A stretch of DNA of 15,136 nt from Candidatus Bipolaricaulia bacterium (lineage in GTDB: Bacteria > Bipolaricaulota > Bipolaricaulia > JBHIAT01): NCBI GenBank assembly GCA_046758705.1, contig JBHIAT010000083.1, positions 1 to 15,136 of the forward strand, written 5' to 3'. Each line of letters begins with the position of its first letter. The first letter of the stretch is position 1. The notes under the pieces are model-generated. The model searched no databases. It saw nothing but the letters and a program-made list of their open reading frames with translations, and was not told where the DNA came from. Positions 614 through 15,136 of the stretch are shown one piece after another. The position numbers were made by a program, and so were the translations under genes.

Positions 614-1114
614 ATGAGATCTGAGAACGGATTTACCCTGTTTGAGTTGCTGACTGTCATCGCGATCATCGGGATCTTGGCTGCCTCGTTGCCGTCGCTG
701 CGGCCCTTGTATCTCTTCTACCAGATGCGGTCGACCGCCAACGGCCTCGTCTCCGACATCAACTGGGCTCAGGGCTTCGCCCTTAAGGAGCGGGAGACGT
801 TATGCGTGGACTTTCCGCAGACCGGCTACCGCATCCGTATCTCGGATGGCACAGACCCACAAACGGCCGTCCAGGTGCGGTACATCCCCAAGGAGTTCGT
901 GCTCATCGATCGCGGGTTCTTCGTCTCCAGTGACGATTGCAGCAATGATGCGAACCTGTTGATCATCGAGCCACGGACATTGTCAAACGGCAGTGTGGTC
1001 GTCGCCCCCAGCGATTTCCAGTCGGGCACCCAGGGCCGGGGAGCGGTGACCAGTCTATTCAGGGTGACCGACCAATGTTACCAATACGACGGAGCTGCTT
1101 GGCAAACATGCTGA
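614..1114 (+). CDS. FimT/FimU/GspH-like minor pilin
   Basis: Class III signal ENG|FTLFELLTVIAIIGILAA with E5, followed by ..STANGLVSDINWAQGFA.., which resembles the FimT/GspH helix. Four Cys in the globular part. Confidence 0.85.
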   Translation: MRSENGFTLFELLTVIAIIGILAASLPSLRPLYLFYQMRSTANGLVSDINWAQGFALKERETLCVDFPQTGYRIRISDGTDPQTAVQVRYIPKEFVLIDRGFFVSSDDCSNDANLLIIEPRTLSNGSVVVAPSDFQSGTQGRGAVTSLFRVTDQCYQYDGAAWQTC

Positions 1115-1545
1115 AGAACGAACGAGGCGTAGGGTTGATAGAGGTGATGGCCTCTCTGGTGATCTTCCTGCTGATCACCATCGGCCTGATCAACTTCTTC
1201 CTCAACGGCATCCGATCGAACGCCGATGCCGAGCACCGTGCCCAGGCGACCGGGCTGGCGAAGGGGAAGATGGAGGCGATCGAGACCATGAACTTCGACG
1301 ACATCACCCCTGCTGGCCTTCAGACCCAGTGGTTCAGGTATTCACCTGACAGACGCCTGACATGGGGACAGACCGGAGACCGATTCACGGTGGCCACCAC
1401 CATCCCGCAGTCGTGGGACACGGACAGCGACGGGGAGGTCGATCTGAAGCAGGTGGTGGTGACCGTCTCATGGATCGAGGGAAACTCGTTTAGGGAGGTG
1501 GAGGTTGAAACGATCATTGCCGATGTTACGACGATCTCGAGCTGA
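1108..1545 (+). CDS. PilV-like minor pilin
   Basis: MLKNERG|VGLIEVMASLVIFLLITIGL; 'AT.LA..KME.I' and 'LKQVVVTVSW' are typical of PilV/GspI-like pilins. ATG 1108 overlaps the upstream stop (ATGCTGA), so it is preferred over 1075. Confidence 0.85.
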   Translation: MLKNERGVGLIEVMASLVIFLLITIGLINFFLNGIRSNADAEHRAQATGLAKGKMEAIETMNFDDITPAGLQTQWFRYSPDRRLTWGQTGDRFTVATTIPQSWDTDSDGEVDLKQVVVTVSWIEGNSFREVEVETIIADVTTISS

Positions 1546-2383
1546 ACCCGAGCACGGCGAACGGGGCTTCACCCTGCTCGAGCTGATGCTGTCCGTTGCC
1601 ATCTTCAGTATTTTGGCACTCGGGCTCTATGAATTCCTGATCCGCAGTGGGATCCAGACGTGGGAACGGAATCTGATCCGGAACAAGCTGATCCGCAACG
1701 GCAATTACGATGTCGAACTTCTGGTCCGGGACCTCCGCGAGGCGCGCAACCTCAAGATGGGCGATGACGACGGGTCGGTTCAAAGTCCATTCACCACCAC
1801 CTTCGAGGTCACCCATGAGATCGAAGTGGCAAACGGCGTCGGACCGGACGGCGCCGGCTGGGTTGAGGTGCTCGGCGGGATGGGAACGGAGGGCGCCAAC
1901 TACGATCGAACCTGGTGTTTGGAGTATGATGACCCGCCCGGGCGGTTCGACGTCTACAGCTTCGTGGAAGATGCGTCCCAAGCCGGAGGCTGCGATTCAG
2001 GCACCGCCGAGGGGTGGATTTTGATCAACCAGACGTTCGATTCCGGCGGCCTGCGTTTCGTCGTCCGCAGCGGAACCCAGACCTTCGGGGACGGTGATCG
2101 ATTCGCTATCTCCCCGCAGACCACCTTCCGGACCAGCGACACCACCCCGCAGACGGGATCGGTCCGGTTCCGGATCCGGGATACTGGGGTTCCGCTCTTA
2201 CTGAAGATACAGGAGAACAGCGGAGGAAACGGCAACCCGATCATGGAGGAGAGCATCCTGAAAAGCATCGCGTTCATCCAGTACAACAAGAGGATCGAGA
2301 TTCAGCTGCTCCTGGCGGAGAACGGCCAGACGGTCTCGATGTGGACCCTCGTCGTCCCAAGGATATGGGCCAGCCAGATATGA
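1505..2383 (+). CDS. PilW/PulJ-like minor pilin with inserted beta domain
   Basis: ERG|FTLLELMLSVAIFSILALGLY and the 'LVRDLREA' motif typical of PilW/GspJ. TTG start has GGAGG at 1494-1498; alternative ATG at 1523. Confidence 0.82.
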   Translation: MKRSLPMLRRSRAEPEHGERGFTLLELMLSVAIFSILALGLYEFLIRSGIQTWERNLIRNKLIRNGNYDVELLVRDLREARNLKMGDDDGSVQSPFTTTFEVTHEIEVANGVGPDGAGWVEVLGGMGTEGANYDRTWCLEYDDPPGRFDVYSFVEDASQAGGCDSGTAEGWILINQTFDSGGLRFVVRSGTQTFGDGDRFAISPQTTFRTSDTTPQTGSVRFRIRDTGVPLLLKIQENSGGNGNPIMEESILKSIAFIQYNKRIEIQLLLAENGQTVSMWTLVVPRIWASQI

Positions 2384-2590: not shown

Positions 2591-3697
2591 ATGGCCTTCT
2601 CAGAATGGATTAGTAAGCTCGGTGGGAATGTCAAGCATAATACAGCCATCGATATCGAAGGTTCCAGCCTGAAGCTGGTTCAACTGAAGTATACCCGGGA
2701 GCAGCGCAAGCTGATCAATTTCGATATCGAGCGACTCGAGACCGGTGGTCTCGAAGGGGCGGAGATCGCCGACGAGGCCCAGGTGATCGGGGCCCTCAGA
2801 GAGTTGAAACAACGCAACGGCTTGCGGGACGGGGAAGAAGTGATCTCGTGTCTGCCGGGTGAGAAGGTCACCGTCCGGTATACCTTGGTTCCGAACATGT
2901 CCGATAAAGACATTCGGGAGGCGGCCCGGTGGATCTTTCAAGATGAATTGCCGTTTTCGATCGAAGACGTCGAGAAGAACTATCTTCGGGCCGGTACCTC
3001 CGCCGATGCAGACGGCGTGGAGAAGGTCAAAGTCCTGATCGTCGCCAGCCCTAAAGAGTTTGTATGGAAATGGATTGAACTCTTCGATGCCGCCGGACTG
3101 CGCATGGGGCCGCTCGATGCTCAGCCTTTTTGCCTGATGAACCTGCTCGAGGGTCGCCTGCGCAGGAACGCCCGGACCATCATCGTCAGGCTGGGCCAGC
3201 AGTCATCCGATATGGGCATCCTCGACGGGGATCAGATCCAATTCACCCGGAATATATCGGTCGGCTGGGACGACCTGATCGAACGGGCGGTCACCCAGTA
3301 CAACCTCCCGATCGGCGATGCCCGAAAGCGGCTGGCTGACCTTGCCGCACGGTATCCTTTGCAAGAGGCGACGGAGGACTCCCAGGAGGAAGGGATACAA
3401 AATCTGATCACCAGCTTCATCGAGAAACTCGTCTGGGAGATCCAGCGATCGACTCGCTTCTACTACGATGAGAGCCCCTCTGGTGGAGAGATCTCCAAGG
3501 TGTTTCTCACCGGTCCGGGCTGCTCCATCAACGGGATCGAAGAGGAGTTCGGACAACGGTTGGAGTTAAGTGCCGAAGAGATCTCTGCGCTAGAGTCTGT
3601 CGACCTATCCAGCCTCGATGATGTCCGACGGGAGCGCCTGAAAGTCCAGGCGCGGGACTACACCACCGCGATCAGTCTGGCGATGCGAGATATGTAA
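2591..3697 (+). CDS. pilM: Type IV pilus assembly protein PilM (actin/FtsA-like)
   Basis: AIDIEGSSLKLVQL N-terminal motif, 'LPFSIEDV', 'VLIVASPK', 'EIQRSTRFY', 'VFLTGPG' and C-terminal 'AISLAMR'. Sits first in a pilMNO(P)Q gene order. Confidence 0.92.
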   Translation: MAFSEWISKLGGNVKHNTAIDIEGSSLKLVQLKYTREQRKLINFDIERLETGGLEGAEIADEAQVIGALRELKQRNGLRDGEEVISCLPGEKVTVRYTLVPNMSDKDIREAARWIFQDELPFSIEDVEKNYLRAGTSADADGVEKVKVLIVASPKEFVWKWIELFDAAGLRMGPLDAQPFCLMNLLEGRLRRNARTIIVRLGQQSSDMGILDGDQIQFTRNISVGWDDLIERAVTQYNLPIGDARKRLADLAARYPLQEATEDSQEEGIQNLITSFIEKLVWEIQRSTRFYYDESPSGGEISKVFLTGPGCSINGIEEEFGQRLELSAEEISALESVDLSSLDDVRRERLKVQARDYTTAISLAMRDM

Positions 3698-3747: not shown

Positions 3748-4353
3748 ATGGCAGCAACAATGACACGGGGCCAGATCGATCTCAGACCGGCAGGTTATAG
3801 CCGGCGTGGGATCAGGCTACAGCTGAACTACAGCACGGCGTTGGTCGGGGGGGTGATCCTCGTGGCTCTGCTGATGGGCGCTGTCTACACCCTCAATAAC
3901 ATGGAGATCAACAGTTTGAATGTGGATATTCAGAAGGTCGACAAGGACATCAGAAAGCTTCAGGAGCTCGAGAGGAAAGTGAGAGAAGCCCAACGAAGAC
4001 GGGATCAGATCAACGATCGGATCGCGGTGATCAATCAGCTGGAGGGTCTACAAATCGAGTGGGCCAGGGTCCTAAACGAGCTGGTCTGGGCGCTTCCCTC
4101 CGAGGTGAAGATTGATCGGATCCAGACGATTCGAACGGCTGACGCGGGCGGAACGAGTCTCATCGTGGACGGCAGCGGAAGCTCAATCAACAGGATCATC
4201 GGAGGATTCATGGCCAACCTCGAGCGCTCCGATCTCTTTGAAGCGGTGAACTTGCGGAGCGATATCAAGGCAACCGGACGGCAACGGTTTCCGTTCTCGA
4301 TAGAGATTCTGCTCGCTGAAGATAGCGCCAGAGCCAGAGGTGGAAGAGGGTAG
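3748..4353 (+). CDS. pilN: Type IV pilus assembly protein PilN
   Basis: N-terminal IDLRP (variant of INLLP), one TM segment, coiled coil, 'WARVLNELVWALPSEV' and 'FMANLERSDLF' PilN motifs. Confidence 0.9.
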   Translation: MAATMTRGQIDLRPAGYSRRGIRLQLNYSTALVGGVILVALLMGAVYTLNNMEINSLNVDIQKVDKDIRKLQELERKVREAQRRRDQINDRIAVINQLEGLQIEWARVLNELVWALPSEVKIDRIQTIRTADAGGTSLIVDGSGSSINRIIGGFMANLERSDLFEAVNLRSDIKATGRQRFPFSIEILLAEDSARARGGRG

Positions 4354-4362
4354 GGATCGGAC

Positions 4363-5436
4363 ATGCAAATCCCGTTTTTGGAGAACCTCGCAACCCGGGA
4401 GAGAGCGCTCGTCGCCATCATCGTGCTGGGAGTCATCCTTTTCGGTTTGTACTCGTTCATCTACACCCCCCAACAAGAGGAGCTCCAAACACTGGATAAG
4501 AAACTGGCGGAGAAACGTCTGGCCAGGAAGAGCTTGGAAAGAGACAATACCCCGGAGAAGATCCAAGAGTTGGAGCGGCAGATCGTCGATCGGGAGCAGG
4601 AGTTGATCCGGTTAAATGAACGGATCCCTCAGCGTGAGGAGCTTCCCTTGCTGGTGAGGAATATCTCGACCTACGGAGAACAGGCAGGCGTCAGCATCAC
4701 CCAACTCAAGGAATCTGATTTTAAACAGGGCGAGAAGTTCTGGACGAAACCCTACACGCTGGCGAGCGAAGGGGGCTACCTGGGCATGGTCCGCATGCTT
4801 TATGCGGTTCAACGCGGACGCAGGATACTCAATGTTGACGGTTTCACCATCGTCGGCGACGATCCCAACAACCTGCACGTGACTTCGGTGATCCATTCCT
4901 ACGTCATCCCATCGGAGGACCCAATCCTCATGAGCACACCCGCGCAAACCGGGCCGGTAGTCGACGAGGTCGATATCGAACCCGACTTTGAACTGGTGCT
5001 GCAGAACCCGTTTGAGGATTACTTTATCCCCGAACCGGAGCCGGAGATCGTGGCGGAACCCGAGGAGGAACTGATTGTGGTGACTTTGGAGCCAGATCTG
5101 GTGCTTCAGGATAACGCGTTGACCTTCCAGGGGCTCCGGAATGATTTCGCCCTGCAGGACTTGGCTACACAGGTTATCCCCCCGGCACTGTCGGAGTTGG
5201 CGGATGCCCCGCCGTTCATCCCGTTGAAGCAACTCCAGCTGGAGGATCGTTACAGCTATAATGGGTTCTTCGCATCGGACGGCCTGACGACTGCAATCAT
5301 CATCAAGGACGGTAGGGAGCAGCTGGTCAACGAGGGGGATCTGATGGATGGTTATGAGCTCGTGGAGATCGATCACGGGAAGGTCCTGTTTAAGAAGGAT
5401 GGTAGAGACTACATCCTATTAAAAGAGGAAAGATGA
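4363..5436 (+). CDS. pilO: PilO protein with fused C-terminal PilP/GspC-HR-like domain
   Basis: N-terminal 'RERAL..' plus TM, coiled coil, 'RIPQREELPLLVRNI' and 'G.Y..M..ML..V....RILNV' PilO motifs. Then an acidic/Pro linker with NPF, and a C-terminal 'YNGFF....TAII..DG...LVNEGD..DGYELVEID...VLF' domain. Confidence 0.8.
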   Translation: MQIPFLENLATRERALVAIIVLGVILFGLYSFIYTPQQEELQTLDKKLAEKRLARKSLERDNTPEKIQELERQIVDREQELIRLNERIPQREELPLLVRNISTYGEQAGVSITQLKESDFKQGEKFWTKPYTLASEGGYLGMVRMLYAVQRGRRILNVDGFTIVGDDPNNLHVTSVIHSYVIPSEDPILMSTPAQTGPVVDEVDIEPDFELVLQNPFEDYFIPEPEPEIVAEPEEELIVVTLEPDLVLQDNALTFQGLRNDFALQDLATQVIPPALSELADAPPFIPLKQLQLEDRYSYNGFFASDGLTTAIIIKDGREQLVNEGDLMDGYELVEIDHGKVLFKKDGRDYILLKEER

Positions 5437-8400
5437 AATCGCTCGCTCGCTGCCCGCATATACCGGTATCTCTCACTCTGTTCATCTCCGCCCTGCTCCT
5501 CTGGTTGTGCCTTTTGTTGGCACTTTCGCCATCGACCTTAGGACAGACCGTTCCCAGCCCGATCGAAGCGATCCAGGCGGTGGAGATGCCAGGGGGGGTG
5601 GAGGTCACCATCCAGGCCGATGGAAAGATCTCCAGGGAGAATCTCGTGGAGATCCGCACGAGTGAGGCGCGCGACACGCTGATCTTCCTCCTCAACGGCC
5701 TCACGATGGAGCGCAGACATCTGGTGACCGTTCCCCCAGGGTTGATCCTTGCCGTGGTCGCTGAGATGGAGGACGAGCTGGTCAAACTGTCGGTCGATTT
5801 GGTCGATCCGGTTCCCTTCGATGTGATCGAGACCGAGGCGGGCCTGTCGATCCTCATCGGTGATGTGGAGGCCGTCCGGACATCGGTCTTGAAACGGACC
5901 GCTCGCAGCCCGATCGAAGCGATCCAGGTGGTGGAGATGCCAGGGGGGGTGGAGGTCACCATCCAGGCCGATGGAAAGATCTCCAGGGAGAATCTCGTGG
6001 AGATCCGCACGAGTGAGGCGCGCGACACGCTGATCTTCCTCCTCAACGGCCTCACGATGGAGCGCAGACATCTGGTGACCGTTCCCCCAGGGTTGATCCT
6101 TGCCGTGGTCGCTGAGATGGAGGACGAGTTGGTCAAGCTGTCGGTCGATTTGGTCGATCCGGTTCCTTTCGATGTGGTCGAGACCGAGGCGGGCCTGTCG
6201 ATCCTCATCGGTGATGTGGAGGCAGTTGCCGAGGAACGGGAACGGATCCGAAGAGAACAGACCCGGCAAGCGATCGCCGAGCTCAAGGAGGCTCGGACCA
6301 CTCCCCAGCAGACCCAGATCACAGAGACCGAGACTGCCCTCCAGGAGATCGAGACCCCAGAGACCCCAACCACGCTCCACGAGACTCAGAATGCCTTGGG
6401 CGATAATCACGAAGAGGTGATCAGTACTGCGATCCTCACAGTCGCCACGGTGGAGTCATCTGAGATCATCCGGACATCGGCCCAGGAACAGACCGCTTCC
6501 AGCCCGATCGTAGCGATCCAGGTGGTGAAGGTGCCAAGGAAGGTGGCGATCACCATTCAGGCCGATGGAAAGATCTCCAGGGAGAATCTCGTGGAGATCC
6601 GCACGAGTGAGGCGCGCGACACGCTGATCTTCCTCCTCAACGGCCTCACGGTGGCACGCAGACATGTGGTGGCTGTCACTCGAGGGTCGATCCTCGCCCT
6701 GGCCGCTGAGATGGAGAACGGGCTGGTCAAGTTGTCGGTCGATTTGGTCGGTCCGGTTCCCTTCGATGTGATCGAGACCGAGACGGGGGAGCTTTCGATC
6801 CTCATCGATGATGCAGAGGCGATTGCCGAGGAACGGGAACGGATCCGACGAGAACGGGCCCGGCAAGCGATCGCCCTGGCCGAGACCGAGGTCGACCTGG
6901 CATCTGCCAGCCTGAAACAGGCGAGGGCAAACGGGCTCGCCGATGATCCGTTCGCCGAGGCGACGGCCAAGATCGGAGAGGCCCAGGACACCCTTCAGAA
7001 GGCTCGGAATGCCTTTGCGCGCGGTGACTACGAGGAGACGATCGGCGCCGCGATCCTCACAGCCGTCTCGGCACAATCATCCTTCAAGATCGCCCGGACG
7101 GTGCTCACTACCCCGGTACCCGTACCTATCGTGGAACTGCCCATCCCTCCTGAACCCGGACCCGAACCCGAACTGATACCCGAGGAGACGATCCTGGAGA
7201 TCGTCGAGTTTACCGATATACCGCTCCATCAGGTGATCAGCACCCTAAGCCGCGCCACCCGGAAGAACATCATCATCGACGATGTGATCCGAGATATCCT
7301 GATCACCCTGTCCCTGCAAAATGTCACCTTCCAGGAGATGCTGGAGAGCATCCGGTCCACTCACGAGCAGGTTGACTTCATCGAACGAACCGACGGATTC
7401 TTCATCTCCACACCGGAGAGGATCCTGTCACTCCAGACTCAACCCCAACCGCAACCCGAACCGATACCCGAGGAGACGATCTTGGAGACCGTCGAGTTTA
7501 CCGATATACCGCTCCATCAGGTGATCAGCACCCTAAGCCGCGCCACCCGGAAGAACATCATCATCGACGATGTGATCCGAGATATCCTGATCACCCTGTC
7601 CCTGCAAAATGTCACCTTCCAGGAGGTGCTAGAGAGCATCCGGTCCACTCACGAGCAGGTTGACTTCATTGAACGAACCGACGAATTCTTCATCTCCACA
7701 CCGGAGAGGATCCTGTCACTCCAGCCCCAACCCCAACCTATAGTCGTGCCGCAGCCTGAGCCTGGACCCGAACCGACGCCTGATGAGACGATCCTGGAGA
7801 CCGTCGAGTTGAGTGATATGCCGCTCCACCAGGCGATCCGCACCTTAGGCCGCGTCACCCAGAAGAATGTCATCATCGACACCGCGGTCCAGAACATCCC
7901 GATCACGATCTCCCTCAGGAACGTCACCTTCAGAGAGATCCTGAGGAACATTGCGTTCATTTACGAAAGCATCGACTTCATCGAACGGTCCGACGGATTC
8001 TTCATCTCCACACCGGAGAAGATCGAGGATTTGCGGGGCGGGGTCGCGGATCCGCTGTCCCAAGTCCATGTCTTCGATCTTCGCGGGTTCCAACCCACCC
8101 AGGTGCGCTCGATCCTGATCTTCTACATCCCCGAACTCACGGAGAAGCACGTCGGGGTTATCGGAGATCAACTGCTCGTCCGCGGCACTCCAGAGACCCT
8201 CGTCCGTGTTGATGCATTGATCGAGGATCTGCAACGCCGGGCCGGACAACCTACTGAAGAAGGAGGGACCCCGTTCAGCCTGAAGGTCGATGCGGGGGGG
8301 ATCTCGGCCAACTTGCGTGAGGCCGATCTCGTCTCCGTCCTCAATCAAATCGCCCAACAGAGTGACCAGAACGTCGCTATCGCCCCCGAGGTCAACGGGA

Positions 8401-10010
8401 CCACCACCGCCAACTTCAAGGACCTTAACTTCGAGGAGGCCCTGGAGATCCTCCTGTTCGCCACCGACTTCCAGTTTGTCAAACTCAACACCACCTACAT
8501 CATCGCCTCGTCTCAGTACATCCAGGGGCTGAGTCTGGAACCCGCAAGGGGAGCGGAAGAGGAGGGAGGGGAAGAGAAAGTTCTAAGAAGATTCCCGCTG
8601 ACCCACATCTCCCCCGAGGACGCCCGGGCACTTCTCGCCACGTTCGTGACCCTCGAGACGGCCGCGATCGATGCCCGCACGAATGCGCTGTTGATCAGGG
8701 ACACACCGTCCAAGTTGGAACAGGTCGAAGAGATTCTGAAGTCGATCGACCTACCGTCTGAGCAATCGGTGGGACCGGAAGTCATGGAACTCATACCGAC
8801 GGAACCGGGATCGAAGCTGGATATCGAGATCGATACGTCCGTTGACCCGATGTTGGTCTCGGTCAAGCTCAACGATGCCGAGCTGTCTCAGGTCCTGGCC
8901 ATCCTGGTACAGGAGTCTGGGATCAACATCTTCTTCGATCAGCAGTGCAGCGGCACGGTGACGGCCGATTTTGAGGTTATACCATTCGACGTGGCCTTGG
9001 ATCTCATCCTCAAGCCATCCGGATGCAGTTTCACCACGCAGACCTCCTCCGAGCCGACCTACATTATCTCCTCAGAGACCCGGATCAAGGAGGTCTTCCA
9101 GGAGCGCGCCACGCAGAAGTTCCCGGTCGACTTCGCCGATGCCGAGGCGCTGGCATCGGTGTTGGGTTCTGCGTTCTCCGATGCCAGCCTCACGGTTGTC
9201 CAGGCAGGGACCGGACTGTTAGTGCGGGCGACCCCGGATGAACTGGAGGAGATTGGGCAGCTGATCGTCGACCTCGATACCAAGTTGCCCGAGGTGATGA
9301 TTCAGGCTCAGATGGTCGATCTCAGCCGGAACGCCTCCCGGCAGCTGGGGTTGAACTTCACCGGGACCGATACCGGGGCTGGGGATGATCCCGTCTTCCT
9401 GGGCGAGGATCCCGCGGGAGCGGGAGGTTTAATTGACATCGGCCTCCAATTCGATTTCGCGGCCGGAGTATGGGGACTGACCACCACGATAGACCGGCTG
9501 ACCTCAGCCCTGAGAGCCCTAGAGCAGCAGGACGAGGCGTCGGTGCTCTCGAGCCCCCGGGTCGCCACCATCTCGGGCCAGCAGGCCATCATCGTCTCAG
9601 GGCAGACAATCTTCTTCAAGATCCGGGAGGAGACCGATTCGGGCATCACCGAGAGGTTCGAGTCGATCGAGGTCGGCATCCAGTTGACCATCACGCCGAT
9701 CGTGAATCCGTCGGGGTTCATCACCGTCGAGCTCACTGTCACCGAGAGCCAGCCGATCGGCGCGATCCCCGCCGAGAGCACACAACCCCCGAACACCCAG
9801 ACCCGGACGATCAATACCACGATCCGGGTTCGGGACGGGGAGACGATCGTCATCGGCGGGCTGCTGCAGAACTTCTCCGAGGAGACACTGAATAAGGTCC
9901 CGCTGCTCGGCGATATCCCGGTGCTCGGCGAGCTGTTCAAGAGCCGTAGCACCAGTCAACAGGAGCGAGAGTTGACGATCTTCATTACCCCCCGGATCCT
10001 CAACAGTTAG
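5433..10010 (+). CDS. pilQ: Giant PilQ-type outer-membrane secretin (signal peptide, 3 AMIN-like, 5 N0/STN-like and 3 Secretin_N-like domains, C-terminal secretin domain)
   Basis: ATGA overlap with pilO. Secretin motifs: EVMIQAQMVD, VLSSPRVATISGQQA, VGIQLTITP, TTIRVRDGETIVIGGL, KVPLLGDIPVLGELFKS, ELTIFITPRI. Confidence 0.93.
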   Translation: MKSLARCPHIPVSLTLFISALLLWLCLLLALSPSTLGQTVPSPIEAIQAVEMPGGVEVTIQADGKISRENLVEIRTSEARDTLIFLLNGLTMERRHLVTVPPGLILAVVAEMEDELVKLSVDLVDPVPFDVIETEAGLSILIGDVEAVRTSVLKRTARSPIEAIQVVEMPGGVEVTIQADGKISRENLVEIRTSEARDTLIFLLNGLTMERRHLVTVPPGLILAVVAEMEDELVKLSVDLVDPVPFDVVETEAGLSILIGDVEAVAEERERIRREQTRQAIAELKEARTTPQQTQITETETALQEIETPETPTTLHETQNALGDNHEEVISTAILTVATVESSEIIRTSAQEQTASSPIVAIQVVKVPRKVAITIQADGKISRENLVEIRTSEARDTLIFLLNGLTVARRHVVAVTRGSILALAAEMENGLVKLSVDLVGPVPFDVIETETGELSILIDDAEAIAEERERIRRERARQAIALAETEVDLASASLKQARANGLADDPFAEATAKIGEAQDTLQKARNAFARGDYEETIGAAILTAVSAQSSFKIARTVLTTPVPVPIVELPIPPEPGPEPELIPEETILEIVEFTDIPLHQVISTLSRATRKNIIIDDVIRDILITLSLQNVTFQEMLESIRSTHEQVDFIERTDGFFISTPERILSLQTQPQPQPEPIPEETILETVEFTDIPLHQVISTLSRATRKNIIIDDVIRDILITLSLQNVTFQEVLESIRSTHEQVDFIERTDEFFISTPERILSLQPQPQPIVVPQPEPGPEPTPDETILETVELSDMPLHQAIRTLGRVTQKNVIIDTAVQNIPITISLRNVTFREILRNIAFIYESIDFIERSDGFFISTPEKIEDLRGGVADPLSQVHVFDLRGFQPTQVRSILIFYIPELTEKHVGVIGDQLLVRGTPETLVRVDALIEDLQRRAGQPTEEGGTPFSLKVDAGGISANLREADLVSVLNQIAQQSDQNVAIAPEVNGTTTANFKDLNFEEALEILLFATDFQFVKLNTTYIIASSQYIQGLSLEPARGAEEEGGEEKVLRRFPLTHISPEDARALLATFVTLETAAIDARTNALLIRDTPSKLEQVEEILKSIDLPSEQSVGPEVMELIPTEPGSKLDIEIDTSVDPMLVSVKLNDAELSQVLAILVQESGINIFFDQQCSGTVTADFEVIPFDVALDLILKPSGCSFTTQTSSEPTYIISSETRIKEVFQERATQKFPVDFADAEALASVLGSAFSDASLTVVQAGTGLLVRATPDELEEIGQLIVDLDTKLPEVMIQAQMVDLSRNASRQLGLNFTGTDTGAGDDPVFLGEDPAGAGGLIDIGLQFDFAAGVWGLTTTIDRLTSALRALEQQDEASVLSSPRVATISGQQAIIVSGQTIFFKIREETDSGITERFESIEVGIQLTITPIVNPSGFITVELTVTESQPIGAIPAESTQPPNTQTRTINTTIRVRDGETIVIGGLLQNFSEETLNKVPLLGDIPVLGELFKSRSTSQQERELTIFITPRILNS
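5555..6223 (+). repeat. Near-identical 318-bp in-frame duplication (5555-5872 and 5906-6223; period 351 bp) of an AMIN-like domain
   Basis: Compared by eye: 5 mismatches, all transitions. Confidence 0.95.
6500..6875 (+). repeat. Third, more diverged AMIN-like copy, which also shares the downstream AEERERIRRE..RQAIA helix with copy 2
   Basis: Identical core GCCGATGGAAAGATCTCCAGGGAGAATCTC...CTCAACGGCCTCACG with diverged flanks. Confidence 0.9.
7175..7724 (+). repeat. Near-identical 262-bp in-frame duplication (7175-7436 and 7463-7724; period 288 bp) of an N0/STN-like domain
   Basis: Compared by eye: 6 mismatches. Copies are separated by a PQPQPEP linker. Confidence 0.95.
7785..8024 (+). repeat. 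Third, diverged N0/STN-like copy
   Basis: ETILETVELSDMPLHQAIRTLGRVTQKNVIID...DFIERSDGFFISTPEKI aligns with copies 1 and 2. Confidence 0.9.
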
Positions 10011-12296
10011 TTATTTGCTATCTTCCTCTGCGGTCGGGATCGGGATTCGGTGACCACAGTTCCGCTGGCTGCATCTCAGCTCATCCTTGAACGCCATCAG
10101 GACACCGGCTTGGCACTCCGGACAGATCCCAGTCGGTCTCCGGTTCACCGCGAACGTACAATCGGGGTAGCGATTACAACCGTAGAACGGCTTGCCGGTC
10201 TTCCTGGAGAACCGCTCGACGAGCTCCCCGTCCCCACAGCTAGGACAGGAGACCCCGGTGGGTAGGGGTTGTGTATGGCCACAGCTCTGATTGGTACAGG
10301 CCTGGTACCGACCATATCTTCCGTGCCGGACCTCCATGGCCGCCCCGCATTTCGGACATCGGGCCGCGGTCGATTCGAGCCGCTCCGCGTACTGCTCCAG
10401 GCGCTCCCGCACCATCACCTCTCCGGCATGGTATTCGAACCCAACATCCAACGGGAATTCCTTCTTCTCCTGACATTCCGGATAGCGGGAACATCCTAAG
10501 AAGCGATTCCCCTTCCAGTATCGAATCTCCATCGGACTCCCACACGCAGGGCAGGGTACGTCCGTCAACACCTGGAAGGCGCCGCCGTCTTCGATGTTTC
10601 GCTGAACCTGGTGGAGTTGCTTCTCGAACGGGACATAGAACGCTTGTAACAGTTGGGTCCTGGAGAACCCCCCGTCACTGATCCGGTCCAGGTTTTCCTC
10701 CATGTCGGCGGTGAAGTCGGTGCGCACGATCTCGGGGAAGAATCTTTGCAGAAAGTCGGTGACGATGAATCCCAACAGGGTGGGATGGAGGAGGCCGCGT
10801 TCCTTGTGCACATACCCGCGGTCCTGGATCGTGGAGACGATGGTGGCATAGGTGCTCGGCCGTCCGATCCCTCTCTGCTCCAGAGCCTTGATCAAGCTTG
10901 CTTCAGAGTAGCGATTCGGTGGCTCGGTAAACCGCTGGTCGAGGAGAATCTCCCGCAGTTCCAACCGATCCCCCACGGCGAGTTCGGGAATCTCCACCCC
11001 TTCGTCGCGCAGCGGTTTGAGCTTCAGCACCTTCAAGAAGCCGGCGAAGATCTGGATGGACCCTGAGATCTGGAAGGTATAATCCCCTGCCGCGATCACC
11101 AACTTCCGCTGCCGGTACCGGGCCTCGGCCATCTGAGTGGCCACAAATCGTTCCCAGATGAGCTTGTAGAGTTTATACTGATCCCCAGTGAGGTACTGCT
11201 GAACCCGATCTGGAGTCCGCCCCACCTCCGTCGCTCGGATGGCTTCATGTGCATCCTGTGCCGTCTTCTTATTTCTGAAGATCCGAGGCTCGGGAGCGAG
11301 GTGGTCCTCTCCCCAACGGTCCGTAATATAGCTTCGCAATTCCTCCTGGGCCCTCTCCGCCACTCGGGTGGAATCGGTCCGCATATAGGTGATCAATCCC
11401 ACCGTCTCCCGATCGAGTTCGATCCCCTCGTAGAGCTGTTGGGCGATCCGCATCGTCCGCTTCGGGGAGAACCGCAGGATCGAGGACGCCGCTCGCTGGA
11501 GGGTGCTGGTGATGAACGGAGGCGGTGGTGTCCGAGTCCGGTCACGCGCTTCGACGTGTGCCACAGCGAACGTCTCGTTTGCCACCGCTCGCTCGATCCG
11601 CCTCGCCGCCTTCTCGGTCTCGATGCTCAGCCGCTCGCCCCGATACGCCTTGAGCTGCGCCACGAACTCCGACCCCCCTGAGTCAGGGGCAAGCCGAGCG
11701 GCGATCTCCCAGTACTCCTCTGGCTGGAACGCCTGGATCTCGCTCTCCCGGTCGCAGATGAACCGGAGTGCAACCGATTGCACCCGGCCAGCGCTCAGTC
11801 CCGCATACTTACTCCCGCTCACCGACTTGGAGAGCAGCGGGCTGATCTGGTAACCCACCAACCGGTCCAGGATGCGCCGAGCCCGCTGTGCCTCGACCTT
11901 GTTCGTGTCGATCTCCACCGGATGCCCGATCGCCTTCAGGATGACATCCCGGGTGATCTCGTTGAAGATGACCCGTCGGAAGGGAAGGTTTCCGTCCCTT
12001 CCCTTCAGCACCTCGTAGAGATCGTAGGCGATCGCCTCTCCCTCGCGATCGTTGTCGGTCGCCAGATAGATCGCCTCCGCCCCCTTCGCCTCGTCGCGCA
12101 ACTCCTTGATCAGTTTTCTGTTCCTAAGAAGGAGGCGCGGGGTAAAATCGTGCTCGATATCGACCCCGAGTTCCTTCTTGGGCAGATCACGCACGTGTCC
12201 TTTGGAAGAGAGCGCTTTAAAGCCCCGGCCTAGATATCTTCCGATGGTGTTCGCTTTGGTTGGGGACTCGACGATAACCAACCGCTTCCCGCTCAT
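10011..12296 (-). CDS. topA: DNA topoisomerase I (type IA) with four C-terminal C4 zinc ribbons
   Basis: TOPRIM LVIVESPTKA, GHVRDLP, ATDNDREGEAI, SAGRVQS, catalytic GLITYMRTDS, QDAHEAIR, GIGRPSTY; ribbons CPAC, CPKC, CPSC, CPEC. ATG 12296 is preferred because GGAGG lies 5 nt upstream. Confidence 0.97.
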   Translation of the reverse strand: MSGKRLVIVESPTKANTIGRYLGRGFKALSSKGHVRDLPKKELGVDIEHDFTPRLLLRNRKLIKELRDEAKGAEAIYLATDNDREGEAIAYDLYEVLKGRDGNLPFRRVIFNEITRDVILKAIGHPVEIDTNKVEAQRARRILDRLVGYQISPLLSKSVSGSKYAGLSAGRVQSVALRFICDRESEIQAFQPEEYWEIAARLAPDSGGSEFVAQLKAYRGERLSIETEKAARRIERAVANETFAVAHVEARDRTRTPPPPFITSTLQRAASSILRFSPKRTMRIAQQLYEGIELDRETVGLITYMRTDSTRVAERAQEELRSYITDRWGEDHLAPEPRIFRNKKTAQDAHEAIRATEVGRTPDRVQQYLTGDQYKLYKLIWERFVATQMAEARYRQRKLVIAAGDYTFQISGSIQIFAGFLKVLKLKPLRDEGVEIPELAVGDRLELREILLDQRFTEPPNRYSEASLIKALEQRGIGRPSTYATIVSTIQDRGYVHKERGLLHPTLLGFIVTDFLQRFFPEIVRTDFTADMEENLDRISDGGFSRTQLLQAFYVPFEKQLHQVQRNIEDGGAFQVLTDVPCPACGSPMEIRYWKGNRFLGCSRYPECQEKKEFPLDVGFEYHAGEVMVRERLEQYAERLESTAARCPKCGAAMEVRHGRYGRYQACTNQSCGHTQPLPTGVSCPSCGDGELVERFSRKTGKPFYGCNRYPDCTFAVNRRPTGICPECQAGVLMAFKDELRCSQRNCGHRIPIPTAEEDSK

Positions 12297-12344
12297 CCGC
12301 ACCTCCCTTGTCTTAGTATTCCCGTGCTCTGAGTCATTTAGAAG

Positions 12345-12373
12345 AGTATAAGAGCCGTTGAAGAACCTGTCAA
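12345..12373 (-). promoter_or_regulatory. Sigma70 promoter for topA (TTGACA-17 nt-TATACT)
   Basis: The + strand reads AGTATA 12345-12350 and TGTCAA 12368-12373: near-consensus boxes with a 17-nt spacer. Confidence 0.75.
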
Positions 12374-12405
12374 GGGACGCTGTCTTGATGGCATCGGAAC
12401 TTGCT

Positions 12406-12445
12406 TTGACTCATTCTCAATAGTTATGGTATGATTGGGTATAAT
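12406..12445 (+). promoter_or_regulatory. Putative sigma70 promoter(s) for the polysaccharide genes
   Basis: TTGACT 12406-12411, 18 nt, TATGAT 12430-12435 (preceded by TGG). A second TATAAT at 12440-12445. Confidence 0.55.
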
Positions 12446-12457
12446 AGATACAATCAC

Positions 12458-13777
12458 ATGGAAGAGTACGAAGTCTCTTTGCGAGAGTATATCGAGGTCC
12501 TCTGGCAGAAGAAGTGGATCATCCTGATCGTCCTGGTCGCCGCGGTGGCGACCGCCGCCGTCTTCTCCTCCAGAGCCCCGGAGCAGTACGAGACGCAGAC
12601 GAAGCTGTTGATCAGCCCCCGGATCGCTGAGCAGTTGACCGACGACCAGGAGAATCCGCTCCCTCCGATCCTCGGGGCTTTCTCAGCGGGAACTTATCGC
12701 AGCCTGGCGATGGCAAGTGATCTGCTCCAGGAGATCATTACCTCCCTGGATCTGAGAGGCAACCCGGATGGGAAGCTCTGGTCGGTCGAGCAACTCGTCG
12801 GGATGATGGACCCCAGGGTCGAGGAGACCAACCAGAGACGGGAGGCGAGGTCTCTGCCGCTGTTGACGATGGTCGTCCGCGGCGGGGATCCGAAGATGAT
12901 CCAGCGGATTGCCGACAAATGGGCAGCGCTGTTCATCGCAAAGAACACGGAACTGCTCTCGACGGCTTCGACTCAATCGTTCCAGTTCATCGAGGATCAA
13001 TACCAAAAGACGAGTCAGGCGCTCCAGACGAAAGAGGAGGAGAGGAAGCGGTCTCAGGTAGGGGGCTCGCTGGAGACCCTGGAGAGCGAGTTCAGGGTGC
13101 TACGAATTCAATACGAAAGTTCTCTTGTCCAACTCCTCAGCAACCGGTTGAAGTTGGTCGAGAAGGAGGCAGAGGTCCAAAACCTGGAACAGGAACTCGA
13201 GACGGAGCCCGAGTTCCTGAGTTTCGAACGTGCGGTCCCAAACGAGGTGATCTGGAGCCTGCTGAGGGAAAACCCCGACGTGAGCCAGCTCAATGCGCTG
13301 GCGGATCTGGTCCTGATCGACCAGGAGCGGAACGAGATCTTCTTCTCACTGCGGGAGCAGTTGGTACAGGCGCGGATCACCGTCAACATCCTGAAAAGTG
13401 AGATCGCTTATCTGGAGGATCAGACCGTAGCGGTTCGTGATATGATCGATGAGCAGGCGGACGGAATCACAGAAACCCGGCTCACGCTGGATCAGCTCGA
13501 CCGGGAGATCTCCGCGTTGAAGAGCACGTTCTCCCTGCTGTCGACCAAACTGCAAGAGGCGCGGATCGCTAAGGAAGAGCAACTCAACACAATCCGTGTC
13601 GTCGAGGCAGCGATTGTCCCGCAAGTCCCGATCGGGTCTAATCAACGACTGAATGTGCTGATCGCCGGTGTGCTGGGACTGTTCCTCGGTGTCCTGCTTG
13701 CCTTCTTCACCCACTATATGGAGGCCCCGAAGGACGTCGCCGCTGATCCCGATTCCAAAGAGGCGACCAAAGAGTGA
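12458..13777 (+). CDS. Polysaccharide co-polymerase / chain-length determinant (Wzz/GumC/Wzc-N type, no kinase domain)
   Basis: EVSLREYIEVLWQKKWII + TM1 + PEQYE....LLI; long coiled coil; C-terminal IRVVEAAIVPQVP + TM2 (IAGVLGLFLGVLLAF). Start 12458 is chosen by alignment with the paralog's start. Confidence 0.88.
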   Translation: MEEYEVSLREYIEVLWQKKWIILIVLVAAVATAAVFSSRAPEQYETQTKLLISPRIAEQLTDDQENPLPPILGAFSAGTYRSLAMASDLLQEIITSLDLRGNPDGKLWSVEQLVGMMDPRVEETNQRREARSLPLLTMVVRGGDPKMIQRIADKWAALFIAKNTELLSTASTQSFQFIEDQYQKTSQALQTKEEERKRSQVGGSLETLESEFRVLRIQYESSLVQLLSNRLKLVEKEAEVQNLEQELETEPEFLSFERAVPNEVIWSLLRENPDVSQLNALADLVLIDQERNEIFFSLREQLVQARITVNILKSEIAYLEDQTVAVRDMIDEQADGITETRLTLDQLDREISALKSTFSLLSTKLQEARIAKEEQLNTIRVVEAAIVPQVPIGSNQRLNVLIAGVLGLFLGVLLAFFTHYMEAPKDVAADPDSKEATKE

Positions 13778-13781
13778 CGGC

Positions 13782-13810
13782 TTGACCGGGTGGAGAACGA
13801 GGATCATAAT
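13782..13810 (+). promoter_or_regulatory. Putative internal promoter for the second co-polymerase (TTGACC-17 nt-CATAAT)
   Basis: TTGACC 13782-13787 and CATAAT 13805-13810 in the 54-bp gap. Confidence 0.5.
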
Positions 13811-13831
13811 TTGTAGAACGGGGTAAGAGCA

Positions 13832-15136
13832 GTGGAAGAGAATGAAGTCCCTTTGCGAGAATATATCGAGATCCTCTGGAAGGGGAAGTGGATCATCCTG
13901 ATCGCCCTGGTCGCCACGGTGGTGAGCGCCGCCCTCTTCTCCGCTAGACTCCCGGAGCAGTACGAGACGCGGACAAAGCTGCTGATCACCCCCCCGATTG
14001 CTGAGCGGTTGACGACGACCGGGGAAGAGGGAAATCTCTCCTCCAGTGCCAGTACCAGGGAAGGAACATTCTCGGTTGAGACCTACCGAAGTTTGGCCAC
14101 GGCCAACGATCTGCTCCAGCAGATCATCGACGCCCTCCATCTCACCAGGGGGAACCCTGATGGGGAGAAACTGCCCGTGGAATCCCTGGCACGGATGATG
14201 AGCTCCAGCGTCGAGATGGCCGAGGGGGGAAGGGAAGCGAGACCCCTACCGCTGTTGACGATGGTCGTCCGCGGTAAAGATCCTGAGCGGATCAGGCAAA
14301 TCGCTGATAACTGGGCAGCGCTGTTCATAGAAAGGAACGTGGAACTGCTCACCGCTGAGTCAACCCTGTCCTTCGACTTCATTGAGACCCAATACCACAA
14401 CAACCAGGGGGCTCTCGAGGCGAAGGAGGATGAACGGGAACGCTACAAGGCGGAGAACCCTCTCGATATTCTGAAGGACGAGCTGGGGGTCAACCGGACC
14501 AAGCTGAAGGGTTATCGCATCAGTCTCGCTGACACGACCACCCAACTCGCGCTGAACCAGGGGGAGCTTGCTCAACTCCTACGACAGATCGACGAGCTGA
14601 GCATCGCGGGACGATGGGCGGGGTTGTGGTTGAACGATGGCGAGGAACTGACGTTGCTACCTGAGGAGAGCCTGGCACAGCGATCTTTGAACCAGGCCAA
14701 GATCCAGTTCTTCCAGGCCCAGGAGGCGAGCCAACAGTTCCAGATCCAAAGCGACCTCACTCAGCTCAAACAGCAACTCCAGATCCAGCGTGACAAGCTC
14801 TCCAGTGCCCGTTCCCAGCTCCAGGACACCACCACCCAACTCAACCAGCAGCAAAAGCTCTTCGATACCTACCAGGGCCAACTGGCCGAACTCACCCAGA
14901 ACGATCGCTGGATTGGCATCATCGCCGTCGGTGACGTCGAGTCCCAACAGCAGGAACTCACCTCGTTCCTCCAAAATGAGATCGCCTTAGCCAAAACGCA
15001 ACTTCAGGAGGCCGAGCAGCAACTGCGCACCTTCCAGCGCGACAGCGGCCTCACCCAGCTCAAACAACAACTCCAGATCCAGCGTGACAAGCTCGCCAGC
15101 GCCCGCTCCCAGCTCCAGGACACCACCACCCAGCTC
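13832..15136 (+). CDS. Second Wzz/GumC-type co-polymerase paralog with expanded coiled-coil repeats (3' truncated by window)
   Basis: GTG start; my translation (M)EENEVPLREYIEILWKGKWIILIALVATVVSAALFSARLPEQYETRTKLLI... stays open for 435 codons to the window end. Clearly paralogous to 12458-13777. Missing from the ORF track. Confidence 0.88.
   Translation, partial: MEENEVPLREYIEILWKGKWIILIALVATVVSAALFSARLPEQYETRTKLLITPPIAERLTTTGEEGNLSSSASTREGTFSVETYRSLATANDLLQQIIDALHLTRGNPDGEKLPVESLARMMSSSVEMAEGGREARPLPLLTMVVRGKDPERIRQIADNWAALFIERNVELLTAESTLSFDFIETQYHNNQGALEAKEDERERYKAENPLDILKDELGVNRTKLKGYRISLADTTTQLALNQGELAQLLRQIDELSIAGRWAGLWLNDGEELTLLPEESLAQRSLNQAKIQFFQAQEASQQFQIQSDLTQLKQQLQIQRDKLSSARSQLQDTTTQLNQQQKLFDTYQGQLAELTQNDRWIGIIAVGDVESQQQELTSFLQNEIALAKTQLQEAEQQLRTFQRDSGLTQLKQQLQIQRDKLASARSQLQDTTTQL
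14402..15136 (+). repeat. 294-bp (98-aa) tandem repeat: units start at 14402, 14696 and 14990 (last is partial)
   Basis: DTTTQL codons at 14531, 14825 and 15119 (exactly 294 apart). 14755-14842 and 15049-15136 are nearly identical in DNA. Confidence 0.88.

Follow-up and report, generated by a model that had tools for sequence, protein, structure and literature searches.

Bacteria with wide envelopes are already known to carry long secretins and long tethers. The type IV pilus secretin PilQ of Thermus thermophilus is reported to stack six rings over 35 nm in a 70-nm periplasm (PMC4463427, PMC5745081), and the secretin complex of Deinococcus radiodurans is given as 35 nm compared to 22 nm (PMC10828601). 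The SlpA coil of D. radiodurans measures 28 nm for a measured wall-to-membrane distance of 30 nm, and the Omp-alpha tether of Thermotoga maritima is 45 nm long in the same report (PMC9388160) or about 50 nm in another, where the lateral periplasm is about 70 nm (PMC10160955). Here we describe a PilQ secretin encoded on a 15,136-nucleotide (nt) stretch of DNA, referred to as the window, which is the whole of contig JBHIAT010000083.1 (C83) in the genome (G000; GCA_046758705.1) of an uncultured vent bacterium of the Bipolaricaulota. On balance, we favor the reading that this long PilQ is matched to a wide gap between the cell wall and the outer membrane, predicted at about 35 nm from a tether encoded elsewhere in the genome.

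The pilQ gene (5433..10010; all window features are on the plus strand unless stated) encodes 1525 amino acids (aa) and matched TIGR02515 with 287.2 bits against a cut-off of 284.35. The protein begins with three AMIN domains, which are predicted peptidoglycan anchors (aa 42-145, 159-262 and 357-461; 5556..6815), and a three-helix segment separates these from the N domains (aa 461-560; 6816..7112). Three tandem N0/STN domains with Pro/Gln-rich linkers, the product of a recent duplication, come next (aa 586-657, 682-753 and 786-857; 7188..8003). They are followed by five further N domains found by profile matches, an N1-N0-N1-N0-N1(N3) series (8046..9308), and by the secretin domain (PF00263; 9516..10001). 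The N domains therefore read N0-N0-N0-N1-N0-N1-N0-N1, with five N0 and three N1. As in type IVa PilQ proteins, the secretin domain is preceded by N0 and N3, and pilQ is the last gene of a pilM-N-O-P-Q cluster in a genome that also holds pilins and PilB/PilT-type ATPases. A single-sequence model of aa 37-568 had a mean pLDDT of 43, was confident only in the three-helix segment, and was not used for a fold search.

Proteobacterial type IVa PilQ proteins (zero to three AMIN domains, N0, N3, secretin) share the N-terminal AMIN repeats and the N0-N3-secretin core with the G000 protein, which passed their family model. However, G000 adds six N domains and the helical segment between AMIN and core, and the best identities for its C-terminal 476 aa were 23-39%. 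The pilus machine of T. thermophilus (PilQ with N0-N5, and PilW) shares with G000 the pilMNO-(P/W)-Q gene order, additional N domains in the secretin, a GspC-HR-like domain carried at the end of a flexible Pro-rich tether, and a long wall-to-membrane connector in the same cell. Unlike Thermus, G000 has eight N domains plus three AMIN domains.

The initial annotation had described stacked, duplicated periplasmic modules in PilQ. The repeats are real and form two sets of three, but the two sets differ in kind, and the first is not channel-building. It consists of three copies of about 300 nt at 5530, 5881 and 6475 (96% and 88% identity to the first copy) and encodes the AMIN domains; the second consists of three 288-nt copies at 7137, 7425 and 7737 (94% and 74%) and encodes N0/STN domains. 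Since AMIN domains bind peptidoglycan (PMC7545093), three of the duplicated modules would add no channel. The Pfam AMIN model PF11741 had no match on PilQ. When 90 AMIN stretches from 38 other secretins were combined into a profile, with the G000 protein left out, all three copies were found (E 1.5e-7, 3.9e-8 and 3e-3). The first copy scored 25.7 bits, compared to at most 5.7 in 200 shuffles, and 92.6% with hhalign; atlas features agreed with the assignment at the level of a lead. An assembly artefact was rejected as the source of the repeats because the copies carry both synonymous and non-synonymous codon differences (5 and 4 of 110; 3 and 3 of 80) and because contigs of three runs from one study matched the unique flanks.

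Within the phylum sample of 184 genomes, where G000 is the sole member of its family, a secretin was found in two genomes, G000 and G132. The G132 secretin (C1:79982-82066, L013) was rejected as a native PilQ since, by inspection only, it looks foreign; this genome is 69% complete and gap-patched, the 694-aa AMIN-N0-N3 frame contains gaps and adjoins aroC, and there was no PilM match. G000 alone had a full-length PilM match, and the partial matches in 11 other genomes (70-80 of 340 positions) are probably FtsA. No close PilQ relative was present in the protein collection at the lengths covered (838-2669), a metagenome scan returned only three loci at 25%, and the N-terminal repeat matched only itself in the representative library. 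Elsewhere, six secretins of 2100-2700 aa (P0069, P0075, P0037, P0041, P0088 and P0033) carry 21-28 N1-type domains, and two of them bear the source names Verrucomicrobia and Planctomycetota.

The tether lies outside the window (C31:12680-13807, L196) and is the only clear SLH match in G000. It has an N-terminal SLH domain, a long coiled-coil stalk and a C-terminal hydrophobic helix, and two related beta-rich exported proteins, one of them containing a 49-aa internal repeat, are encoded downstream. This is the layout of the split Omp-alpha/Omp-beta tether of Thermotogota and Bipolaricaulota, and by analogy the protein would span from the wall to the outer membrane. The stalk, defined as the stretch between the SLH domain and the C-terminal helix, is 236 aa long, which corresponds to about 35 nm at 0.15 nm per residue. 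It is heptad-periodic, with a helix predicted over aa 63-310 with one break (mean pLDDT 66). SLH matches occur in 124 of the 184 genomes. Stalks in 44 measured relatives were 54-133 aa (median 82.5), predicting 8-20 nm, so that the G000 stalk is about three times the typical length and exceeds the longest measured relative by a factor of 1.8; it comes closer to Thermotoga (45-50 nm) than to the rest of its phylum. The 44 comprise the loci with the best scores, every long frame and members drawn from nine families, after five rows were dropped: G049 (chimeric frame), the first match of G032 (barrel-fused and foreign-looking), G146 (contig end), G116 (gap; readable part about 156 aa) and the second match of G115 (not a homolog). 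The longest unmeasured SLH frame is 273 aa from stop to stop, shorter than the 310 aa from SLH to stop in G000; these frames are therefore too short to equal the G000 stalk, which is the longest among all SLH matches in the sample. The relatives with longer stalks (96-133 aa; L207-L216, L187 and L254-L265; families f7, f10, f11 and f4) are largely MlaD carriers.

Directly upstream of pilQ, a single 357-aa frame (4363..5436) joins PilO to a PilP-like domain, and here the description given earlier, a fusion with an acidic, Pro-rich spacer of about 110 aa, was borne out. The PilO part (aa 1-182; 4363..4908) is of standard length, matched PF04350 at aa 48-180 and aligned to Myxococcus xanthus PilO (3jc8, 205 aa). 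The linker (4909..5244) has 112 aa with 25 D/E, 16 P and 2 K/R. The terminal PilP/GspC-HR-like beta domain (5245..5436) was recognized by atlas features (score of 0.89 to PilP clusters, a lead only) and by structure (TM 0.75-0.84 to T2SSC-type models); PF23862 matched weakly, and no sequence match to PilP was found in Pfam or the PDB. The fused domain is predicted to act like PilP, yet it is not a canonical member, being part of the fusion instead of a separate inner-membrane lipoprotein. Its PilP part of about 175 aa is of ordinary PilP size, in contrast to the separate 292-aa PilW of Thermus, which is reported as 60% longer than PilP (PMC13039148). Homologues searched at lengths of 196-625 returned only the fusion itself. 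A second fusion in the genome (C116:6188-8419, L018; 743-aa frame) combines a membrane anchor, a TPR-like region, PilN, PilO, a linker and a PilP-like domain. The central linker motif is conserved between the two, and no pilM or pilQ adjoins the second one.

Domain anatomy, stalk length and phylum distribution are observations, and from these we infer the following steps. The SLH domain of the tether would bind the wall and its C-terminal helix would sit in the outer membrane, with the coiled coil setting the distance as in Thermotoga Omp-alpha and Deinococcus SlpA, such that the outer membrane would be held about 35 nm from the wall. The AMIN domains of PilQ would grip the wall while its N domains would fill the interval up to the barrel. 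With AMIN domains holding one end at the wall and the barrel fixing the other in the outer membrane, PilQ would have to cross the interval set by the tether; eight N domains at roughly 4 nm each, an estimate from the Thermus figure, fit about 35 nm. PilQ, a predicted pilus-extruding ring, would likely serve to guide the pilus across the gap, and the PilP-like domain on its flexible linker would extend from PilN/PilO as far as an N0 domain. The tether, and not the repeat count, would be the ruler, with the three outermost N0 copies on Pro-rich linkers acting as tolerant slack. The wide gap proposed earlier is thus supported, by the 236-aa stalk of a protein encoded outside the window and by eight N domains over the same interval, but a signature running through the envelope as a whole is not. 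Our literature search, which left most subscription journals outside, found no stated link between tether stalk and secretin N-domain number. The periplasm of uncultured bacteria is out of reach of imaging, but here the two proteins yield a testable envelope figure, about 35 nm compared to the 8-20 nm predicted for relatives, and if their lengths prove matched, envelope dimensions could be read from genomes.

Several points weigh against a matched wide gap. It rests on a single genome, with no relative holding a native PilQ among the 184. The stalk may be bent or tilted, and the outer-membrane placement of the C-terminal helix is borrowed from Thermotoga by analogy; in G000, this helix is shorter than those of relatives and also less hydrophobic (1.45 compared to 2.0-2.8). 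In Proteobacteria, Lpp length alone reportedly need not dictate periplasm width (PMC8824477). The number of N domains ranges widely elsewhere, with up to 28 N1-type domains in P0069 and five N0 domains in P0013 and P0014. In run X4, which contains related strains, one 214-nt contig at a depth of 4.7 joins window position 7373 to 7974, and 7482-7961 is uncovered. This weak junction may reflect one or two fewer N0 domains, or gene conversion. A contig that skips N0 repeats speaks for slack and against the precise ruler that had been attributed to repeat number, and N0 number may vary harmlessly.

The remaining counterevidence comes from other trans-envelope proteins, for which standard lengths had been named beforehand as a point against the proposal; in part this is what was seen, with BamA, TolC, its adaptor, PilN, PilO and Wzz1 all of standard length. 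At 777 aa, the BamA frame has an ordinary size, and its POTRA domains number five, the count also found in 8 of 8 relatives examined, in contrast to the six POTRA domains of Thermus and Deinococcus BamA (PMC2878562). Omp85 matches were found in 173 and TolC-type proteins in 49 of the 184 genomes. The G000 TolC (460-aa frame) and its adaptor could be aligned over their full length with those of short-tether relatives (typically 433-525 aa), and a standard-length TolC and adaptor must still bridge both membranes. MlaD, TamB and LptD_2, sought as rigid-span controls, had no match in G000. In addition, a 373-aa TolC-like protein, seemingly without barrel strands, is encoded directly before the full TolC and adaptor (C92:6218-9757, L016) and might be a partner that lengthens the TolC tube; such a partner was not found upstream of tolC in 12 relatives, but a similar protein occurs in the short-tether genome G066. 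Another relative, G109, has an 820-aa double TolC-type frame. Three paralogous peptidase-like/beta-propeller proteins (C6:45692-48526, C92:769-3684 and C18:6849-9656) have a partial Omp85-type C terminus without POTRA domains. Just upstream of rpoC, a gene (C7:13881-15308, L168) encodes a membrane-anchored protein whose coiled coil of about 370 aa has recent repeats of 36 and 21 aa and which ends in a LysM domain. It is a candidate inner-membrane-to-wall tether, with no clear ortholog.

The repeats could instead be independent, tolerated duplications, to which secretin N domains, AMIN domains and Wzz coiled coils would all be prone, and the long tether a separate quirk of the lineage, with no lengths matched. 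Recent in-frame duplications are present in 12 distinct genes of this genome, 2 of them in the window (at least 90 nt and 80% identity; 15 rows among 2144 frames of at least 300 aa, antisense shadows included). Secretins elsewhere hold from 2 to 28 N domains, AMIN number varies from 0 to 3 in proteobacterial PilQ (PMC7545093), relatives duplicate Wzz segments by themselves, and a related strain has possibly lost N0 copies. However, the most extreme tether among the SLH matches of the phylum and an eight-domain secretin share one genome and have similar predicted lengths, and in published accounts of Thermus, Deinococcus and Thermotoga, long secretin-type channels go together with long tethers. 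We therefore regard unmatched duplication as a doubtful explanation, if one to be taken seriously.

A second alternative is that the wide gap is local, and that only a pilus machine at toga-like poles needs the reach, with Bam, Lpt and TolC working at sites of closer membrane spacing. A BamA, a TolC and an adaptor of standard length would then be expected, toga-like poles with pili are reported in a cultured member of the Bipolaricaulota (10.1101/2025.11.21.689855), and the polar periplasm of Thermotoga is about 450 nm (PMC10160955). Nevertheless, with no other clear SLH protein in the genome, the long tether should set the distance all round, and the separation at the poles of Thermotoga lies between inner membrane and wall, a gap far beyond any secretin. 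A purely local gap seems improbable.

Two adjacent Wzz paralogs follow downstream, each with a Wzz N-terminal domain (PF02706) and a helical periplasmic part, as in known pairs of short and long polysaccharide co-polymerases (PCP). WzzB and FepE are one such pair. Wzz1 (12431..13777, 448 aa) is of standard length for the phylum by comparison with relatives; it lacks a kinase domain, has an anchor-to-anchor span of 396 and ends after its second membrane helix. Wzz2 (13832..15136, at least 435 aa) is cut by the contig end and, unlike known pairs, is enlarged by serial helical modules, two whole and one partial (14447..15136). The initial annotation called these an exact 98-aa repeat. The period is exactly 98 aa, but the copies are imperfect: copies 2 and 3 share 30 of 35 residues (90% over 105 nt), whereas copies 1 and 2 differ in residue at 68 of 97 codons. 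The contig ends within copy 3, so that copy number and protein length are minimum figures. Variant letters at 14977-15048 in the sequencing runs are a hint of further copies beyond the contig end. The modules match no relative examined, and a search for longer Wzz2 relatives gave only one weak match.

Wzz-like genes occur in 86 of the 184 genomes. Loci fetched for 29 relatives gave 22 measurable frames, in which the distance from one membrane anchor to the other is 219-507 aa; G150 and G002 each have an internal duplication of their own. Wzz length varies in relatives without a native secretin and with short tethers, and it does not rise with tether length (rho -0.68, p 0.09, for 7 relatives that are not independent by kinship). 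Wza (PF02563), the partner expected of a trans-envelope co-polymerase (PCP-2a with Wza/OPX), had no match in G000, although at 94% completeness and with 4 of 14 controls matching, its absence is not proven. Co-polymerase periplasmic size has been linked to chain length (PMC13161533), and an O-antigen-ligase-like gene, below cut-off, lies two genes from lpxB. Since there is no Wza match, Wzz1 is standard and Wzz span does not rise with tether length in relatives, Wzz2 is better read as a likely chain-length regulator for a long surface polysaccharide, outside any trans-envelope span. It is thus very unlikely that, as had been proposed, a single signature runs through unrelated machines, with PilQ, the PilO-PilP linker and the Wzz2 coil each extended to bridge inner and outer membranes and repeat number serving as the ruler. 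All three features exist, the long tether makes a wide gap plausible and the LysM coiled coil also has recent repeats, but Wzz length varies on its own, the PilP part is of ordinary size and the other spanning proteins are standard.

Unlike Thermus, G000 also has lipid A genes. All four genes lpxA, lpxC, lpxD and lpxB exceeded their NCBIfam cut-offs, and LpxA, the only one of them surveyed across the phylum, did so in 1 of the 184 genomes, G000. The lpxD and lpxA genes lie at C11:22869-32897 (L014), with a UDP-GlcNAc 3-dehydrogenase-like gene between them; lpxC and lpxB are at C7:7303-8166 (L168) and C234 (L169). The lpxD-lpxA pair sits inside a bamA-skp-fabZ...murD order common to 4 of 9 relatives examined. 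In the same fabZ-murD slot, three relatives have a different gene, which we take to be formiminotransferase, and one has nothing. An LptA-like gene (227-aa frame), one LptF/G and an adjacent LptB-like ATPase are present. No match in G000 was found for the Kdo transferase WaaA (PF04413) or for LptD with PF19838; PF04453 was not searched.

RpoC trees of 22 relatives and 6 outgroups, none from Thermotogota, placed G000 near an unstable base, and the best trees nested it within the phylum. G000 as sister to all others was not rejected (approximately unbiased test, p 0.34, 2000 replicates, one gene). To our knowledge, the neighboring Thermotogota lack lipid A genes. We offer as a speculative possibility that G000 is the earliest-branching member of the Bipolaricaulota and keeps an ancestral lipid A, type IVa pilus and Thermotoga-length tether, and that all other members lost lipid A and pili while their gap narrowed to 8-20 nm, with PilQ N-domain number in G000 still tuned to the tether as repeats come and go. 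In that case, secretin length should be predictable from stalk length across diderm Terrabacteria. Retention and acquisition are both possible, so the apparent lengthening in G000 could just as well be a shortening in its relatives. With lpxA/C/D/B and a full pilus operon on contigs assigned to the phylum, G000 bears on the timing of lipopolysaccharide (LPS) loss toward a toga-type envelope. The one closed Bipolaricaulota genome described is reported to have no LPS or pilus genes (PMC6092417), PMC8871954 offered nothing on the phylum, and the search, in which supplements and most subscription journals lay outside, found no paper on such genes in Bipolaricaulota. Gene-presence tables, such as those of 10.1101/2021.05.31.446380, could already record lpx genes in the phylum.

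A foreign origin was considered, and rejected, for the window and for the contigs of lpxD/lpxA and lpxC. The topA gene (10011..12302, minus strand), which separates the pilus operon from the wzz pair, groups with the phylum and was 55-58% identical to named Bipolaricaulota/Acetothermia records, with identities of 50% or less to the other entries in a list of 80 loci. In addition, lpxD/lpxA lie within the gene order shared with relatives, and lpxC lies on the rpoC contig. The assembly has 3.7 Mb in 319 contigs, with 93.9% completeness and 4.7% contamination. The sequencing runs with matching DNA all belong to one study and are labeled hydrothermal vent metagenome.

The rest of the window holds the start of the pilus operon, so that its content is three minor pilins, pilM, pilN, the pilO-pilP fusion, pilQ, topA on the opposite strand and the two wzz-type genes. 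The minor pilins are GspH/FimT-like (614..1114, 166 aa, N-methyl motif), PilV-like (1075..1545, 156 aa, below the family cut-off) and GspJ/PilW-like (1505..2383, 292 aa, family match). They are followed by pilM (2591..3697, 368 aa; TIGR01175, 162.5 bits against a cut-off of 133) and pilN (3748..4353, 201 aa; PF05137). A 145-aa protein made of two DUF6812 copies (131-568) heads the pilin genes. Positions 1-112 matched the ends of several PilB/PilT-type ATPase genes (C97, C60, C139, C55, C91 and C271), of which the genome has at least five loci, not typed one by one, and the contig probably breaks inside such a gene.

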